From Nocardioides sp. (GTDB taxonomy: Bacteria; Actinomycetota; Actinomycetes; Propionibacteriales; Nocardioidaceae), in assembly GCA_017354415.1 (NCBI GenBank), contig JAFMQY010000001.1, forward strand, positions 28-64,027: DNA of 64,000 nt, written 5' to 3'. Shown one piece after another: positions 45,063-51,739 of the stretch (positions within the stretch are counted from its first letter, which is position 1; every line of letters begins with the position of its first letter). The position numbers were made by a program, and so were the translations under genes. The notes beneath the pieces are model-generated. The model did not search any database. It saw nothing but the letters and a program-made list of their open reading frames with translations, and was not told the origin of the DNA.

Positions 45063-45583
45063 GCACGACACGCCTGGCGCGAGCCGCAACCACCCACGAC
45101 GGCATGGCCGGGGCCATCGACATGCTCCATCGCGCCGAGGGCCAGCTGGCACACGCTCTGATCGACCTCTCGGACCGGCACGCCAGTGACCACGAGATCC
45201 ACCACGTGGCCCGTGACCTGGCCGGTTGGTCCCGAGAGCACGTGCGACGGCTGGCCGATCTGGGGCACTCCCACGGTCTCGATCTCGATCCGGAGCCCGC
45301 CCACGAGGTCGCATGGGCCGGGGCGCTGAAGCAGGCGGGTGCCGAGCTGCTCGGACGGCGACACGCCCCCATCGGGATGCTGCTGGCCGACCTGCGCAAC
45401 CTCCACCAGAAGGCCGCTGGAGTCTCACTCGACTGGGAGATCCTGGCCCAGGGAGCACAGGCGACCGAGGATGCGGAGCTGCTTGCCCTGGCTTCTGAGT
45501 GCCACCCCCAGACCCTGCGCCAGCTCAGGTGGACCAACACGCATGTGAAGGAGCTGGCGGCCCAGGCCCTCACATCCACCTGA
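45059..45583 (+). CDS. All-helical hypothetical protein coupled to the Mo enzyme
   Basis: ATGA overlap. His/Glu-bearing amphipathic helices; a ferritin-like bundle is possible. Confidence 0.65.
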   Translation: MSTTRLARAATTHDGMAGAIDMLHRAEGQLAHALIDLSDRHASDHEIHHVARDLAGWSREHVRRLADLGHSHGLDLDPEPAHEVAWAGALKQAGAELLGRRHAPIGMLLADLRNLHQKAAGVSLDWEILAQGAQATEDAELLALASECHPQTLRQLRWTNTHVKELAAQALTST

Positions 45584-45630
45584 CGTCGCGCGGACCGAGT
45601 GACGGGTCAGTGAGCGGGTACAGACGGTCC

Positions 45631-47106
45631 ATGACCACCCCCTCGCCCTGGCGAGACCGCGCCGCTCCGATCGAGACCGACACCGAACTCGGCCGGGAGT
45701 ACGACGACGTCGTCGTCGGCGCGGGCCTCACCGGCCTGGTGACCGGATTGCTCCTGGCACGTGCAGGTCGCTCGGTGGCTGTCATCGAGGCCCGCGATGT
45801 GGGAGCCGTCACCACGGGAAACACCACGGGCAAGGTGTCCCTTCTCCAGGGCACGAGGCTCTCGCGCATCCTTGCGCGACAGAGCCGGCGCGTGGCACGC
45901 GCCTATGTCGAGTCCAGTCGCGAAGGACAGGCATGGCTGCTGCGCTTCTGCGACGACCACGCCGTCCCGTACCAGGTCCGCGACGCCGCGACTTACGCAC
46001 AGAACCAGGACGCGCTACCCGCTGCTCGAGCGGAGCACGAGGCGGCTCGCAAGCTCGGCCTCGACGTGACATGGCGAGATGACCTGGACGTCCCGTTCCC
46101 GCACCTGGGGGGCACCGTGCTGGCGGGGCAGGCACAGCTGGACGCGATGGATCTGCTTGGCACCCTGGTGAGCGAGCTGCGCCACGAGGGCGGGACGGTG
46201 GTCACCGGGAAACGCGTCGTCGGGGCGGCCCTGTCCGGCGATGCGGTCAGCCTCTCGGACGGCGGCTCCGTCACGGCCTCGAACGTCGTCCTGGCCACCG
46301 GCGTACCGATTCTCGATCGTGGTCTGTACTTCGCCAAGCTCGAGCCGCAGCGCTCGTACGGGTTGGCGTTCCGTCACCCTTCCCCTCCCGAGCTCATGAT
46401 GCTTTCCTCGGGCTCCCCCACGGTCTCGGTGCGGGATGCTCCGTCGGACGACGGATCATTGCTGTTGGTCGGCGGTCACGGGCACGTCGTGGGTCGTACC
46501 CGATCACACGCCGCGCACCTCGATGCGCTTCGCGCATGGACGCAGGAGTGGTTCCCAGAGGCGCAGGAGACGCACGCCTGGTCTGCCCAGGACTACTCCT
46601 CGCACGACGGCCTGCCGTTTGTCGGGCGGCTTCCCCGCGGCCGTGGTCGCCTCTACATCGCCACCGGTTTCGCCAAGTGGGGATTGACCGGCGGCCCCGC
46701 TGCCGCCTTGTCGATCAGCAAGGAGATCCAAGGTCACAGGGCGAGCTGGCAGCGGCCGATATCGCACAGGGTCACCCGACCGCGTCCGGCCATGGAACTC
46801 GTTCGACTCAACACTTCCGCGGGCCTCCACCTGGTCGGTGACCTGCTTCGCGCGGGGCTTCGCCGGGTGAACGATCCCGAGGAAGGCTCAGGGGAAGTAG
46901 GCCGCTCGGGGCTGCTCCCGGTCGGGAGGTCACGGACCGACGGGCGCACGTGCTCGATCGTGGCGCTGTGCACGCACCTGGGAGGGACCCTCACCTGGAA
47001 CGACGCCGAACACTCCTGGGACTGCCCACTGCACGGCTCACGGTTCACCGCCACCGGCGAGGTGCTCGAGGGGCCGGCCACCAGGCCGCTGCATCGCGCC
47101 ACCTGA
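45631..47106 (+). CDS. FAD-dependent oxidoreductase with C-terminal Rieske [2Fe-2S] domain
   Basis: VVGAGLTG, TTGNTTGK, CTHLG...WDCPLHGSRF. Confidence 0.92.
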   Translation: MTTPSPWRDRAAPIETDTELGREYDDVVVGAGLTGLVTGLLLARAGRSVAVIEARDVGAVTTGNTTGKVSLLQGTRLSRILARQSRRVARAYVESSREGQAWLLRFCDDHAVPYQVRDAATYAQNQDALPAARAEHEAARKLGLDVTWRDDLDVPFPHLGGTVLAGQAQLDAMDLLGTLVSELRHEGGTVVTGKRVVGAALSGDAVSLSDGGSVTASNVVLATGVPILDRGLYFAKLEPQRSYGLAFRHPSPPELMMLSSGSPTVSVRDAPSDDGSLLLVGGHGHVVGRTRSHAAHLDALRAWTQEWFPEAQETHAWSAQDYSSHDGLPFVGRLPRGRGRLYIATGFAKWGLTGGPAAALSISKEIQGHRASWQRPISHRVTRPRPAMELVRLNTSAGLHLVGDLLRAGLRRVNDPEEGSGEVGRSGLLPVGRSRTDGRTCSIVALCTHLGGTLTWNDAEHSWDCPLHGSRFTATGEVLEGPATRPLHRAT

Positions 47107-47122
47107 TGCCGAGGCGGCATCA
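47104..47122. terminator. Short hairpin overlapping two convergent stop codons
   Basis: TGATGCC-GAGGC-GGCATCA. Confidence 0.4.
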
Positions 47123-47749
47123 GCCGCCGAATGCGCGGGAGAGCATGGCGACGACGCCTCCCCGGTACGATCGCACCTCGAGACAGCGCAGCGAACCCGA
47201 ACCCGAGGCCATCAGCGCGGCGACCTGAGCCGATGATCCGAGCTGGATCAATGCGAGTCCGGCTTCGTGCACGTGTCGCTCGATGGCACGCAGAGCGTCG
47301 TGCGCGATCGACAAGCCGTCTCTTCCGCCGTCGATCGCCAGGAGTGGGTCTTCGGGATATCGGTGGGTCTCGGCCGTGGCCACCCACGGTGGGTCAGCGA
47401 TGATCAGTGGAAACCGTTCGTCGTCCATGAGGACGTCCTCGACGCGGCCCAGCCGTGCCTCCACCCGCGCGTCGAGCCCCGCGAGGCAGGCGTTGATCGC
47501 GGTGTAGTGAACAGCAATCGGGTCGACGTCGATGCACACCAGCCTGCGCTGGGACCGAGTCGCGGCAGCCAGGCCGATCTGGCCGGCGCCGCTGCAGAGC
47601 TCCAGCACCGGCCCTGGGGGAAGGTCGGTCAGGAGACTGGCCGCCCACTGCGCCTGAGCGACGGTCCACGGTCGTGGACGGAGGACTCGAGAGTCGAAGG
47701 CGATGTCCAGTCCGTCGAACGTCACGTGCTCCGGGAGGGCGAGACTCAC
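47120..47749 (-). CDS. HemK-like class I SAM methyltransferase
   Basis: VLRPRPWT, LELCSGAGQIG, ADPPW, AIDGGRDGL. GTGA coupling. Confidence 0.85.
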   Translation of the reverse strand: MSLALPEHVTFDGLDIAFDSRVLRPRPWTVAQAQWAASLLTDLPPGPVLELCSGAGQIGLAAATRSQRRLVCIDVDPIAVHYTAINACLAGLDARVEARLGRVEDVLMDDERFPLIIADPPWVATAETHRYPEDPLLAIDGGRDGLSIAHDALRAIERHVHEAGLALIQLGSSAQVAALMASGSGSLRCLEVRSYRGGVVAMLSRAFGG

Positions 47750-47940
47750 GGCAGGTCCCTTCGAATGGACTTGTGCGTCCCGTCGCACCAAGGTTTCCGG
47801 CCGGACCCTTCGCAGACACAGAGCGCGACGACGGGCCTCTCCACGGCATGTTCGTCGCCGGACTCGTCGACCACGATGTCGGCGCCGCGCACCAGGAGCG
47901 GTCCGTGCGGGCAGGCGAAGACCTGGATCTCTCGGTTCAT
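47746..47940 (-). CDS. CDGSH-type [2Fe-2S] protein
   Basis: GPLLVRG...ALCVCEGSGRKPWCDGTH. Confidence 0.88.
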   Translation of the reverse strand: MNREIQVFACPHGPLLVRGADIVVDESGDEHAVERPVVALCVCEGSGRKPWCDGTHKSIRRDLP

Positions 47941-48923
47941 GACGCCGCCTCGGATTCGTCGCCCGCGACACCCCACCGTGTCAGGAGATCATCGGCAGAC
48001 AGCCGATCGAGGTGCACGGTGCACAGGGCACCGAACACCACCTCGCTGAGCAGGTCCGGCGTCTGCTCAACGACGGCGCCACACACGTCCCGTGCCGCGA
48101 TCTGTTCGTGGACCGCGTCCGCCTCGACGTGCTCCTCGAAGTACCTCGCCGCCGCACCCAGCCCCAACCTCTCGAGTCCTGCCGCGATCCGCCGCGAGGG
48201 CACGCTGCTCGATGCCTCGAACGCCGCGAAGTGGCCGACGCCGACCGGCACCAGCCGCCGATTCAGGGCGAGCAGGGACATCACGTTGGCCGCCGCGAGG
48301 GTCACCGCCGTGGCCTCGTCGATGTAGGCGCCGTAGCGGGGGTCGAGGCCGGCGCTGACGAGAGTCTCGGCGTACATGTCCTGGTGCAGGTGTGAGGCTC
48401 GCCCTCCGCCGAACTCGTCGTACTGGAGCTCTGCCAGCGCGGCCTTGGCACGTCCCGTGAGGCGGGGGATCAGGAATGCCTGAGGGTCGGACTCCTTGAG
48501 CTGTTGGACGCTGCGCTGGCTGAGGAAGTCACGCATCTGCTCGACGGTCGCGTCTCGGCGGAGGAAGGACGACAACGATGGCCCTTCGTCCTCCTCCACC
48601 AGATCGAGGATCAGGTCGCCGACCGCCTCCTCGCGTGCGAGCAGCTGGTTGAGGCGCCCCCGAGTCGCCGATCTCAGCTCTCGCTCGACCCGACGTTCGA
48701 TGACCCCTCTGAGAGTGATCAGCTCCGGATCCCACTCGCGCCCGGCGTCCACGCCCTCGAAGCCCCGGTAGAAGAGCTCGTACAGGACCCACAGGGCCAT
48801 CTGGACATCGCGGTCGACCAGGACCGGCTCGTTGCCGATCGCCACCGGACGCAGCTCTCGGCCCCCTTGCAGGCTTTCGACCACCCGCCCGCTCACGGGG
48901 CCGCAGGGACCAGGCAACCTCAC
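47937..48923 (-). CDS. Heme-oxygenase-like diiron oxidase (iron-containing redox enzyme family)
   Basis: HQ/QQLKESDP, ELQYDEFGGG...HLH, FEASS, EHVEADAVHE diiron ligand pattern. ATGA coupling to CDGSH. Confidence 0.88.
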   Translation of the reverse strand: MRLPGPCGPVSGRVVESLQGGRELRPVAIGNEPVLVDRDVQMALWVLYELFYRGFEGVDAGREWDPELITLRGVIERRVERELRSATRGRLNQLLAREEAVGDLILDLVEEDEGPSLSSFLRRDATVEQMRDFLSQRSVQQLKESDPQAFLIPRLTGRAKAALAELQYDEFGGGRASHLHQDMYAETLVSAGLDPRYGAYIDEATAVTLAAANVMSLLALNRRLVPVGVGHFAAFEASSSVPSRRIAAGLERLGLGAAARYFEEHVEADAVHEQIAARDVCGAVVEQTPDLLSEVVFGALCTVHLDRLSADDLLTRWGVAGDESEAAS

Positions 48924-49010
48924 GATGTCCCCCTTCTGCCTGGGCAGCCGATTGCATGCGCTCATCTCGTCGACCGGCTTCACGAACCCGTCGAACATGT
49001 GGGAAGTGAT

Positions 49011-49038
49011 GTACCCGATCCGGAGCTTTCGATGAACG
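49011..49038 (-). promoter_or_regulatory. SigF/SigB-like promoter for the HDO operon
   Basis: Minus strand CGTTC-N17-GGGTAC. Confidence 0.45.
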
Positions 49039-49074
49039 ACGGAGACAGGGCGCCTCGCGATGGCTCGAAGGCCA

Positions 49075-49100
49075 GGTTTCACATGCTCGGCGGCGGGAAC
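49075..49100 (+). promoter_or_regulatory. SigF/SigB-like promoter for the decarboxylase
   Basis: GGTTT-N15-GGGAAC, 8 nt before ATG 49109. Confidence 0.6.
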
Positions 49101-49108
49101 GAACGGAC

Positions 49109-50614
49109 ATGGATCACACGCGAGCACCCGTGTTGGAGGCGTTGGTCGAGTTTCGTCGGCGTGGTGACGTCGTCTTCGGCCCCCCGGGCCACCGGCAGGG
49201 GCGCGGCGTCGACCCACGGGTGCTGGAGGTGCTCGGTGCCGGTGTGTTCGCCTCTGACGTCCTGATGCTGAATGGTCTGGACGACCGTCGCGAGTCCGCA
49301 GGGGTCCTGGAGGAGGCCCAGGAGCTGATGGCGGACGCGGTGGGCGCGGACCAGGCCTTCTTCTCCACATGCGGCAGCTCGCTGTCGGTGAAGTCGGCCA
49401 TGCTCGCCGCGGCTGGTCCGGGCGAGACGTTGCTGATCTCCCGCAACGCCCACAAGTCGGTGATCTCCGGGGTCATCGTCAACGGCACGGTTCCCGTGTG
49501 GGTGCATCCGAAGTTCGACCCGGAACGGAACCTCGCTCATCCGCCGGAGCCGGATGACGTACGCCGCGAGCTGTCCGCCCACCCGGACGCGAAGGGCATG
49601 CTCCTGATCACTCCCACGGACTGGGGCACCTGTGCCGACATCGCTGGAGTGGCCGAGGTGTGTCACGAGTTCGACGTCCCCCTGATCGTCGACGAGGCGT
49701 GGGGGGCGCACCTGCCGTTCCACGACGACCTCCCGGCCTGGGGGATGCACGCGGGTGCCGACCTGGTGGTGACCAGCGTGCACAAGATGGGAGGCGCCGT
49801 GGAGCAGAGCTCGGTCTTCCATCTCCAGGGCGACCGGGTCGATCCCGCCGTGCTGAAGCAACGTGAGGATCTGTTGGGCACCACCAGTGCGTCCACCCTG
49901 GTCTACGCGTCACTGGACGGCTGGCGACGCCAGATGGTCGAGCAGGGCGAACAGCTCATGTCCGCGACCATGGTCCTGGCCGATCACGCCCGCAAGCGAC
50001 TCCAGGGGCTTGACGGCGTGCGTCTCATGGGCGCGAAGGTCGTGGACGAGGGCTACGCGTTCGAGGTCGATCCTCTCGTGCTGACCATCGACGTCCGCGC
50101 GCTGGGGATCACCGGCTACCAGGCGGCGGAGCTTGCCCGAGACCGCTATCAGGTCGATTTCGGCTCTGCGGACACGTTCCGCATCAGTGCCTGTCTGACC
50201 CACGCCGATGACCACGCGAGTGTCGACCGGCTTCTCACGGTGCTCGAGCAGTTGTGCGGTGATGCTCCGGAGATCGCCTCATCGGGGCCGGTCGACCTAC
50301 CGCCTTCCGAGGGGCTCGAACCCGAGATCGCGATGCGCCCGAGAGACGCGTTCTTCGCGGACATCGAGCAGGTTCCGGCAGCACAGACGGCCGGGCGGGT
50401 GGTGGCCGAGATGGTCACGCCGTATCCGCCGGGGGTTCCGGTGCTCGCACCCGGGGAGGTCATCACCGAGGAAGCCATCGACTACCTGCGTAGCGGCCTC
50501 GCCGCCGGCATGCTGATCCCGGACGCCGCGGATCCGACCCTCGAGACGCTCCGAGTCGTGCGCAGGGACCCGGTCTCGAAGAATCCACGAGGAGCGACTG
50601 CGGCGGCTCGGTAG
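49109..50614 (+). CDS. Orn/Lys/Arg decarboxylase, PLP fold type I
   Basis: PPGHRQG, SRNAHKSV, VDEAWGAH, TSVHKM, EMVTPYPPGVPVLAPGE. Confidence 0.9.
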   Translation: MDHTRAPVLEALVEFRRRGDVVFGPPGHRQGRGVDPRVLEVLGAGVFASDVLMLNGLDDRRESAGVLEEAQELMADAVGADQAFFSTCGSSLSVKSAMLAAAGPGETLLISRNAHKSVISGVIVNGTVPVWVHPKFDPERNLAHPPEPDDVRRELSAHPDAKGMLLITPTDWGTCADIAGVAEVCHEFDVPLIVDEAWGAHLPFHDDLPAWGMHAGADLVVTSVHKMGGAVEQSSVFHLQGDRVDPAVLKQREDLLGTTSASTLVYASLDGWRRQMVEQGEQLMSATMVLADHARKRLQGLDGVRLMGAKVVDEGYAFEVDPLVLTIDVRALGITGYQAAELARDRYQVDFGSADTFRISACLTHADDHASVDRLLTVLEQLCGDAPEIASSGPVDLPPSEGLEPEIAMRPRDAFFADIEQVPAAQTAGRVVAEMVTPYPPGVPVLAPGEVITEEAIDYLRSGLAAGMLIPDAADPTLETLRVVRRDPVSKNPRGATAAAR

Positions 50615-50733
50615 CCCGATGTGGACCTGCCTGTCGGGGTACGGCGTGACGCATCCCGACGCCATGCAGGTTCCCCTCCCTGCCAGTCATGACATCGGGA
50701 GGTGACCGTGGGGCAGGAGAACCTTTCTCGTGG

Positions 50734-51163
50734 TCAGTTGTTCGCGGAGCCGCTGGAGAGTGCTTCGACCAGCTCGCCGACCTTCTCAGCCGGCAGGTGC
50801 CTGGCCACATCGGCCTGGGAGACCATTCCGACCAGTTCGTGTCCATCGATCACCGCGAGGCGGCGGACGCCGTGGCTGGTCATCGTGTGCAAGGCCTCCT
50901 CCACAGAGTCGTCCGCGCCGATCGTGACCGGCTTGCCCTGGGCGAATGTCTCAACCCGGGTCGTCGCCGGGTCGCCGCCGGCCGCGATGCACCGCACCAT
51001 GATGTCGCGGTCGGTGATCATGCCGGCCAGCCGGTTGTCTTCGCCACAGATGGGCAGGGCCCCCGACGTCGAGGTCGCGCATCTTGCGAGCCGCTTCGGC
51101 GAGGCTTTCGCTCGCGCCGGCACAAGCGCAGTCGGTGGTCATGATCTCGCGAGCAATAGTCAT
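50734..51163 (-). pseudogene. Two-CBS-domain protein (Hrp1-like) with +1 frameshift
   Basis: MTIAREIMT...RKMRDLDVG then ALPICGEDNRLAGMITDRDI in the next frame. The break is at a 5-nt G run (C run 51060-51064 on +). Confidence 0.8.
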
Positions 51164-51325
51164 CACTGGCTTCTTCCGGACGTAGGGGATTGATCCGCTG
51201 CCCGTACTCGGCAACCGAGCGTTCATTCGACGCTCGAGTTACCCGGGGCACATGTAGCAGCCCGTCGTGGGGTACGGCTCGGCGTGGACCATCGCGCACG
51301 GCGAGACCCCGGCCAACCGAACCTG

Positions 51326-51739
51326 ATGGTCGCCGACAGCTTGGCCGGCGTTCTGGCGATCCTGCGGGTGCACCGCATGGTGTACCTGCGGTACTCCGAG
51401 GGTCCTGACGCGGATCTGAGTCGAGGTTCCAGCCGCGACTACGAGGCGGATGTCGAACTTCCCGGCCTCTCGGTCACCGTCGTCTCACCCGAGCCGTGGT
51501 GGTCGCGCCCTGTGGAGGACTGGGTCGCGCGACGCCTGTGCAAGTACGCAGAGCTCGGGGCAGCCGAAGGCAGGTTTCCCTGGCTGCTGACGGGCCGGGT
51601 CGTCGGCAACGGGCCGGACCACGAACCTCTCGTCCAGGGGGTTCTCCCGATCGCCCGCATCTCCGAACGAGCAGTGCGGGAGGCCCTGGACCTCTATCGG
51701 TCACGCTTCGACGTTGGTGAGACCTCCCGGGACCGATGA
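51326..51739 (+). CDS. DUF6098-like family protein
   Basis: YLRYSEGP...SRDYE...ELPGLSV...EPWW...WVARRLCKY...GPDHEPLV. Confidence 0.7.
   Translation: MVADSLAGVLAILRVHRMVYLRYSEGPDADLSRGSSRDYEADVELPGLSVTVVSPEPWWSRPVEDWVARRLCKYAELGAAEGRFPWLLTGRVVGNGPDHEPLVQGVLPIARISERAVREALDLYRSRFDVGETSRDR

Follow-up and report, generated by a model that had tools for sequence, protein, structure and literature searches.

Heme-oxygenase-like diiron enzymes (HDOs) that oxygenate nitrogen are known from natural product pathways, and three of them are the closest described relatives of the enzyme considered here. HrmI/BelK, an L-lysine N6-oxygenase (PDB 9N1A, 9N1X, and 9NH9), belongs to the hormaomycin and belactosin clusters and has no known partner protein; RohS (PDB 9PFW and 9PFX) is the 2-aminoimidazole N-oxygenase of the azomycin pathway and is encoded in the five-gene roh cluster; and the HDO domain of SznF (PDB 6VZY) comes from the streptozotocin pathway, which also holds an N-methyltransferase, SznE. 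BelK/HrmI and RohS have been assayed in vitro with NADH and phenazine methosulfate (PMS) (PMC11611017, PMC13133933), and the words reductant, ferredoxin, and electron donor are all absent from a 2026 review of HDOs (PMC13108848). The type-4 CDGSH iron–sulfur proteins (CISDs) predominate in Actinobacteria and have been assigned neither a function nor a partner (PMC3174974). Here we analyze a locus that encodes one protein of each kind, found in a 64,000-nucleotide stretch of a Nocardioides sp. genome (GCA_017354415.1, contig JAFMQY010000001.1, positions 28 to 64,027, forward strand; G+C ≈68%), which we refer to as the window.

Three minus-strand genes of the window overlap end to start. The first encodes an HDO of 328 residues (47937..48923, GTG 48923 to TGA 47937; PF14518 at 2.6e-51), the second a type-4 CDGSH [2Fe–2S] protein of 64 residues (47746..47940, ATG 47940 to TGA 47746; PF09360 at 7.7e-14), and the third a HemK-like class I S-adenosylmethionine (SAM)-dependent methyltransferase of 209 residues with a DPPW motif IV (47120..47749, GTG 47749 to TGA 47120; PF05175/PF03602). 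The HDO stop and the CDGSH start share an ATGA, the CDGSH stop and the methyltransferase start share a GTGA, and a Shine–Dalgarno sequence read from the DNA, GAAGGGGGA (48936-48928, minus strand), lies 4 nt ahead of the HDO GTG. The original prediction had described this arrangement, the gene families, the C-x-C-x2-S-x3-P-x-C-D-G-T-H and DPPW motifs, and a 185-bp region shared with a divergent decarboxylase gene, all of which are borne out by the coordinates, the overlaps read from the sequence, and Pfam. Its view of these genes as one functional unit holds for the three module genes, the linkage of which across loci is far above chance, and fails for the decarboxylase; its statement that the module has no assigned function also stands. 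We propose that the locus represents a conserved actinobacterial stress module in which an N-oxygenase-type HDO would be served by a dedicated CDGSH [2Fe–2S] donor, with a methylation step in this lineage, and we put the probability of this reading at roughly 0.55.

Linkage of the HDO and CDGSH genes

To place the window in the context of related loci, we assembled a set of 112, comprising 80 loci that encode HDO relatives (from Nocardioides, Microbacterium, Arthrobacter, Cellulomonas, Glycomyces, Nocardiopsis, Planosporangium, and others), 11 from relatives of the genome, 20 from a phylum-wide draw, and the window itself, in which stop-to-stop open reading frames were searched with hidden Markov models. 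A CDGSH gene is found within 3 kb of the HDO gene in 111 of these loci, and this linkage extends over many genera. Within the genus, the HDO, the methyltransferase, and a strong CDGSH match co-occur in the same 16 of 24 genomes; seven of the remaining eight lack all three, and the eighth (G015) harbors two weak CDGSH matches only. The phylum-wide draw of 300 genomes, each at least 90% complete, contains 52 HDO-positive genomes at E up to 1e-15 (counting that of the window) and 105 with a CDGSH domain. Within the class Actinomycetes, CDGSH is present in 19 of 19 HDO-positive and in none of six HDO-negative genomes of the draw. Over the whole draw, the two genes lie within ≈1.3 kb of each other by coordinates in at least 32 of the 52 HDO-positive genomes. 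Five unpublished genomes enter these tallies, two as adjacency-positive (G088 and G160) and three in the CDGSH count (G108, G128, and G185); dropping them alters nothing, and none of the five contributed a locus. Weaker HDO matches, with less than ≈40% identity (families f19 and f44), mostly occur without CDGSH and probably correspond to another subfamily.

The two domains are also found joined in a single predicted polypeptide. A profile built from 48 diverse HDOs (alignment A1) and searched against 1.84 billion representative sequences retrieves 658 clusters (50% identity) at E up to 1e-30, and among the best 150 of these 658, cluster P0169 combines PF14518 with PF09360. The corresponding 90% cluster (P0169/P0293) contains metagenomic proteins of 425 to 623 residues with both the HxxxDxxH ligand motif and a CDGSH motif; the 425-residue form is present on 17 contigs in one source and on one more in another, and the fusion as a whole on more than 20. 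A linker of ≈65 residues, rich in Pro and Val and built of VPDP and VPVTG units, joins the two domains, which makes the fusion unlike a one-base error at the ATGA overlap. A search for longer, fused proteins with the 64-residue CDGSH protein as query returned nothing useful. Judged from these genome comparisons, the conserved core of the module is the HDO plus the CDGSH protein, as a near-inseparable pair.

The CDGSH protein harbors a single C-x-C-x2-S-x3-P-x-C-D-G-S/T-H motif with three Cys and one His, which reads CVCEGSGRKPWCDGTH in the window. These four ligands are retained in all 111 linked copies, and the G-S positions vary (CDGTH, CDSTH, and CDTSH). Type-4 CISDs are defined by a single motif, a G-P lid motif on its N-terminal side, a length of 60 to 80 residues, and a basic residue after the His (PMC3174974), and the protein from the window conforms to this definition, with PHGPLLVRG ahead of the motif, 64 residues, and a Lys after the His. 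It thus resembles RsCISD of Ralstonia solanacearum and other type-4 CISDs in its small size, its single motif following a lid proline, and the basic residue after the His, and differs from those described in PMC3174974, for which no partner is given, in being tied to an HDO and in its variable G-S positions.

We propose that the CDGSH protein, as a dimer with two one-electron clusters, would re-reduce the diferric HDO to the O2-reactive diferrous state, and would in this way take the role that NADH and PMS play in vitro for the nearest characterized enzymes. The same linkage and fusion would also fit a CDGSH protein that supplies iron or clusters, or that senses redox state or nitric oxide, and that loads, repairs, or gates a labile HDO diiron site. 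The cofactor of the SznF HDO domain is unstable and assembles stepwise (PMC7848743), and eukaryotic NEET proteins are, in the part of that literature we drew on, discussed for cluster transfer and nitric oxide binding. The strictly kept three-Cys/one-His ligand set and basic residue after the His are, however, what would be expected of a stable redox center. Each turnover of an HDO of the monooxygenase type consumes two electrons, and the loci show no consistent linkage to any other reductase gene; we consider a role as iron or cluster donor, or as sensor, rather unlikely.

A predicted seven-ligand HDO of the N-oxygenase branch

All 48 of 48 diverse homologues share, without variation, the six primary ligands of the HDO (E170, H180, E236, H265, D269, and H272), which fall opposite the corresponding ligand motifs when HrmI, RohS, and SznF are aligned with the family. 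A seventh invariant residue, E144, is found 26 residues before E170 in an L-K-E-x-D-P sequence and aligns with Glu189 of SznF in L-S-E-A-S (numbering counted from the HMMER alignment). In SznF, Glu189 is an extra bidentate ligand to Fe1 on an interrupted auxiliary helix, aux α2, and has been likened to the additional ligand found in AurF and CmlI, which are ferritin-like N-oxygenases (PMC7848743). The AlphaFold (AF2) model of the HDO is all-helical (predicted local distance difference test score 95.1, predicted template modeling score 0.92), and the helix that matches aux α2 is interrupted at residues 142 to 144. The protein combines the heme-oxygenase-like fold (in the model and by PF14518) and the three His and three carboxylates of the superfamily with a predicted additional Fe1 carboxylate, E144, which HrmI itself lacks.

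When the HDO family profile is compared with the sequences in the PDB, HrmI is detected at 5.7e-20 over nearly its full length, followed by RohS (2.8e-16), SznF (≈4e-16), and, far below, BesC (1e-3); UndA, CADD, AetD, and FlcD go undetected in the same comparison. Foldseek of the model gives a corresponding order, with template modeling (TM) scores of 0.75 for HrmI, 0.69 for SznF, 0.68 for RohS, 0.60 for FlcD, 0.54 for CADD, and 0.49 for UndA, and all of the top matches are HDOs. By both measures, the protein is closer to the N-oxygenases than to the C–C-cleaving HDOs. The ligand set, E144, and the order of the profile and Foldseek matches therefore lead us to predict a diiron enzyme of the three-His/four-carboxylate (3H/4C) type that belongs to the N-oxygenase branch. 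Further invariant charged residues, D39, E63, E76, D146, R154, K160, and D169, suggest a polar substrate.

Each of the three relatives shares some of these features and lacks others. HrmI/BelK is the best match in both sequence and structure and is likewise a single-domain protein of similar size; it differs in its 3H/3C ligand set, with a Phe at the position of E144, and is only ≈20% identical to the HDO of the window. SznF has the heme-oxygenase-like fold, the six core ligands, and the extra Glu of aux α2 on an interrupted helix, and its pathway, like the operon described here, includes an N-methyltransferase. At ≈20% identity, the HDO of the window differs from SznF in lacking the cupin and an N-terminal dimerization domain of the SznF kind, in having a CDGSH partner (SznF has none), in being located outside a natural product cluster, and in the HemK-like nature of the associated methyltransferase. 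RohS has a Glu in the same L-x-E-A motif, shares 16 to 18% identity, and has no CDGSH partner.

HDOs that share identical primary ligands can differ in function (PMC13108848), and identities of ≈20% to HrmI and SznF leave room for an HDO that carries out C–C cleavage or desaturation, as do BesC and UndA, or self-sacrificial radical chemistry, as does CADD. Consistent with such a departure, Asp185, the one charged pocket residue of SznF, is not kept and is replaced by Gln or Tyr in the HDO family of the window, so that a substrate other than that of SznF is expected. The profile nevertheless favors three N-oxygenases (1e-16 to 1e-20) over BesC (1e-3), UndA and CADD are undetected by sequence and have TM scores of 0.54 or less, and the extra Fe1 carboxylate is a feature tied to N-oxygenases (PMC7848743), which makes chemistry other than N-oxygenation distinctly unlikely. 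The suggestion of an N-oxygenase-like HDO with CDGSH as its likely reductant is thus upheld by the comparison of profiles, ligands, and linkage.

Predicted stress-type promoters upstream of the module

A predicted promoter of the SigB/SigF type is found on the HDO strand at 49011..49037, with a −35 GTTC (49037-49034), a 17-nt spacer, and a −10 GGGTAC (49016-49011). This GTTC-N17-GGGTAC sequence lies 88 to 114 nt upstream of the HDO start (the −10 element ends at 88 nt) and is the sole well-formed motif of its kind in the intergenic sequence of the 64-kb window; the actinobacterial SigB/SigF-type consensus is GTTT-N14-19-GGGTA (PMC4694148). Across the related loci, GGGTAC is found within 200 nt upstream of the HDO gene in 31 of 110 loci versus 58 of 813 other genes of the same loci (Fisher p = 1.4e-9, a figure made too strong by the relatedness of the loci). 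Nocardioides-like, Streptomyces-like, and mycobacterial loci and loci outside the class Actinomycetes account for most of the signal, and the −35 region is variable (GGCATG, GATTG, or GTTTG, 14 to 16 nt upstream). A strict search for GTTT-N15-17-GGGTA places a match near the module in 5 of 112 loci, which is not convincingly enriched. A scan of positions 46900 to 51400 against Rfam at E up to 1 gives a chance snoRNA match alone and no riboswitch or other RNA element.

Two linked loci bear on this regulation. In Streptomyces sp. CA-256286, the 467-kb linear plasmid NZ_CP071045 harbors a methyltransferase–CDGSH–HDO operon (locus L113, 226310-235248), annotated as 'class I SAM-dependent methyltransferase', 'CDGSH iron-sulfur domain-containing protein', and 'iron-containing redox enzyme family protein'. 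Two sigma-factor genes of the SigB/SigF/SigG kind flank this operon, together with a GAF-ANTAR gene and a STAS gene. In a separate locus (L100), a GAF-ANTAR gene overlaps the HDO start. In Mycolicibacterium rutilum (locus L107), the methyltransferase and CDGSH genes are co-directional and the HDO gene is convergent with them, with GTTT-N15-GGGTAT directly before its ATG.

This mycobacterial layout recalls the MSMEG_1771–1773 genes of Mycobacterium smegmatis, which are members of the SigF regulon. MSMEG_1771 ('methylase, putative'), MSMEG_1772, and MSMEG_1773 change by log2 of about −6 in a sigF mutant, and promoters are listed 29 nt before 1771, with the same one lying 696 nt before 1772, and, separately, 11 nt before 1773 (PMC4694148). 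MSMEG_1771 encodes a protein of 222 residues, is induced by ethanol, and has a viable deletion mutant, made while candidates were tested for mycofactocin methylation, a role that was assigned to MftM (PMC9679996). The gene sizes, their order, and the separate SigF-type promoters are all as in the methyltransferase–CDGSH/HDO layout of M. rutilum; the mycobacterial trio differs from the operon of the window in its NPPY-type methyltransferase and in a convergent HDO gene that is not co-transcribed. Taken together, these features suggest that an alternative stress sigma factor of the SigB/SigF type would transcribe the operon.

The third gene, other neighbors, and the proposed role of the module

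The third position of the module is variable. Among the 112 loci, 28 harbor a HemK-like (MTS-domain) methyltransferase, 17 a GT2-like protein of ≈340 residues, and 66, mainly from Microbacterium and Arthrobacter, have neither within 3 kb. The GT2-like protein has a DDD motif, C-terminal hydrophobic helices, and weak Pfam GT2 matches and is never found together with the methyltransferase; its gene is placed between those of HDO and CDGSH in 17 loci (L094:3882-4943, L097:3203-4264, L102:3129-4154, L104:3143-4162, and 13 more). Within the genus, the methyltransferase gene is found within 2.1 kb of the HDO gene in 15 of 16 genomes and is 17 kb away in the other (G021). It lies downstream on the same strand in the window, G010, G007, and also G012 (where it appears split in the search). 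In G001 and G016 it precedes the HDO gene without a change of strand, in eight genomes the two genes converge, and in G011 they diverge. In G012, the HDO and the methyltransferase each match in two pieces (C5:117647-119461), which may reflect a decaying module or a frameshifted assembly. That the linkage survives such rearrangement argues for a shared function, and the changes in order and strand mark translational coupling as a local feature: the coupling claimed at the outset is present in the window, whereas in 8 of 16 congeners the gene is on the opposite strand, so that the methyltransferase is not always co-transcribed. It was further suggested that the small CDGSH protein is itself the target of the methyltransferase; this is unlikely, since 111 of 112 loci harbor CDGSH and just 28 the methyltransferase.

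The methyltransferase is nearest to PrmC/HemK, PrmB, and HemK2/MTQ2 in NCBIfam and falls well under every curated cut-off. Its match to TIGR03534 (5.8e-22) reaches 78 bits, where the cut-off is 199, and begins at profile position 52 of 253, and its match to HemK in the PDB (1.3e-6) covers the catalytic domain only. At 209 residues, it lacks the N-terminal substrate-binding helical domain of PrmC, and it has DPPW in place of the NPPY that forms motif IV in PrmC. Given the shared fold and amino-directed motif class, it would work like an N-methyltransferase without being PrmC. Among 16 aligned linked methyltransferases, motif IV is DPPW in 10, as in the window, and DPPY in two. DPPW or DPPY thus marks the Nocardioides type, and NPPY is found only in the Streptomyces/Mycobacteriaceae type, in four loci from large genomes (L098 and L112, probably Streptomyces; L107, M. 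rutilum; and L103). In a 23-row tree that includes the MTS paralogues of the window's genome, the DPPW and NPPY enzymes form no single clade, a tentative result given its long branches and open forks; it is possible that the two types of amino-directed methyltransferase were recruited independently.

These affinities could also be read to mean that the target is a macromolecule, such that a HemK2/MTQ2-type enzyme methylates either a glutamine of a protein or the amine of a nucleobase, and the HDO hydroxylates or oxidatively demethylates the same site, as writer and eraser acting under stress. The best families of the methyltransferase are indeed protein-Gln and rRNA-guanine N-methyltransferases, and the M. 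rutilum copy carries the NCBI name 'HemK2/MTQ2 family protein methyltransferase'. We nonetheless consider this very unlikely, since 84 of the 112 loci lack the methyltransferase, with the GT2-like enzyme instead in 17, since the methyltransferase itself scores under the equivalog cut-offs and has no PrmC N-terminal domain, and since the characterized relatives of the HDO all act on free small molecules.

On the other side of the HDO gene, an intergenic gap of exactly 185 bp (48924-49108) separates it from the divergent gene for a short-form Orn/Lys/Arg-type decarboxylase dependent on pyridoxal phosphate (501 residues; 49109..50614, plus strand, ATG 49109; PF01276 at 1e-55 plus PF03711). A relative of the decarboxylase is found in none of the 80 HDO loci, and in none of 40 relatives of the genome is it beside the HDO module. 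The family is present in six of these 40. Three (G009, G019, and G022) carry it without the HDO, as 3 of the 4 decarboxylase-bearing congeners do; in G010 and G037 the two genes are on separate contigs; and in G032 the decarboxylase, 71% identical, is ≈1 Mb from the HDO gene. Absence from all 80 loci and from the vicinity of the module in all 40 relatives identifies the decarboxylase as a chance neighbor and refutes the link that had been predicted, in line with the refuting outcome set beforehand. A four-gene pathway in which the decarboxylase makes an amine, the HDO oxidizes it, and the methyltransferase N-methylates it, as the shared divergent region and a plausible amine substrate for an N-oxygenase-type HDO might suggest, is essentially excluded by these counts (0 of 80; 6 of 40, never near the HDO) and by the other neighbors of the decarboxylase here, DUF6098 and glutamine synthetase. 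A second decarboxylase paralogue, 37% identical, is found in the same genome (G000:C192:1363-2802); the match contains one TGA and one TAG, which may point to a pseudogene or to an artefact of reading frame in the search. The DUF6098 gene (51284-51739, plus strand) has a GGGTAC at 51270-51275 with a CATG-type −35, ≈10 nt ahead of the start of the longest open reading frame, and its transcript is possibly another stress-type, leaderless one.

Downstream, 13 bp separate the methyltransferase stop from the end of a convergent gene for a flavin adenine dinucleotide (FAD)-dependent, DAO-type oxidoreductase fused to a Rieske [2Fe–2S] domain (535 residues; 45499..47106, plus strand; PF01266 plus PF00355). 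Its real start is probably ATG 45631, since homologues align only from about residue 37 to 48; a GGGTAC at 45616-45621, ≈10 nt before this ATG, may mark a leaderless stress transcript. The FAD-Rieske gene is found in 15 of 80 HDO loci and within 8 kb of the HDO gene in 4 of 16 congeners. As an obligate partner we reject it, as three genomes carry it and lack the HDO and five carry the HDO and lack it; it is a loosely linked neighbor and, speculatively, a candidate reductase for the CDGSH protein. Other neighbor families across the loci are mixed and include ADH, FAD oxidases, hemerythrin, luciferase-like, AhpD-like CMD, SDR, GNAT, GCS2, and GAF-ANTAR proteins. A GCS2-type carboxylate-amine ligase gene (PF04107) lies directly upstream of the HDO gene on the same strand in one Actinomycetota genome (L106:4382-5836, minus strand) and may hint at an amino-acid-like substrate.

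A stress module built on an N-oxygenase-type HDO and its CDGSH donor would operate as follows. On induction, the reduced HDO would N-hydroxylate or N-oxygenate a polar amine or guanidine-type small molecule, and in the Nocardioides genus the HemK-like, N-directed methyltransferase would methylate the substrate or the product; in other lineages, the third place would be taken by a membrane GT2-like enzyme or by nothing. Several observations, besides the relatedness that inflates the promoter statistic and the loss of SznF Asp185, weigh against this proposal. Most HDO copies in Microbacterium and Arthrobacter have no GGGTAC upstream. The orthology of MSMEG_1771–1773 to the module is probable, from layout and genus, and the HDO–CDGSH fusion is known from predicted protein sequence. 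The neighbor families yield no pathway, and no recognizable biosynthetic cluster surrounds the module. Finally, the 66 loci that lack a third gene mark the methylation step as dispensable, and the DPPW and NPPY enzymes form no single clade in the small tree.

All three genes are already present in public records under generic names, and the mycobacterial trio is listed, uninterpreted, in tables of the SigF regulon; our literature search found no paper that describes an HDO–CDGSH pairing or any native HDO reductant. What the present analysis adds is the refutation of the decarboxylase link, the predicted seventh-ligand (3H/4C) assignment, the natural fusion protein, and the split between DPPW and NPPY methyltransferases. 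More tentatively, and with the odds somewhat against the full set of claims, the CDGSH protein would be the first native, dedicated redox partner of any HDO, and this would be the first role for a bacterial type-4 CDGSH protein; together, the two would yield, under stress, an N-oxygenated small molecule that Nocardioides-like, Streptomyces, and mycobacterial lineages would N-methylate and that others would glycosylate or link to a lipid. This molecule would be a component, so far undescribed, of the SigB/SigF general stress response of actinobacteria.

Work on HDO enzymes has relied on artificial reductants (NADH/PMS), and no physiological electron donor for them is named in the recent literature that we consulted; structures of bacterial type-4 CDGSH proteins have been solved since 2011, with no function attached. 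A near-obligate gene pair and its natural fusion offer a direct and cheap test of both questions, that of the HDO donor and that of CDGSH function, and the genetics are at hand in the form of M. smegmatis mutants and conditions for SigF induction. In soil actinobacteria, and probably also in M. smegmatis, the module appears to be part of a stress response of the SigB/SigF type, and for this reason a missing stress metabolite could be what it makes.

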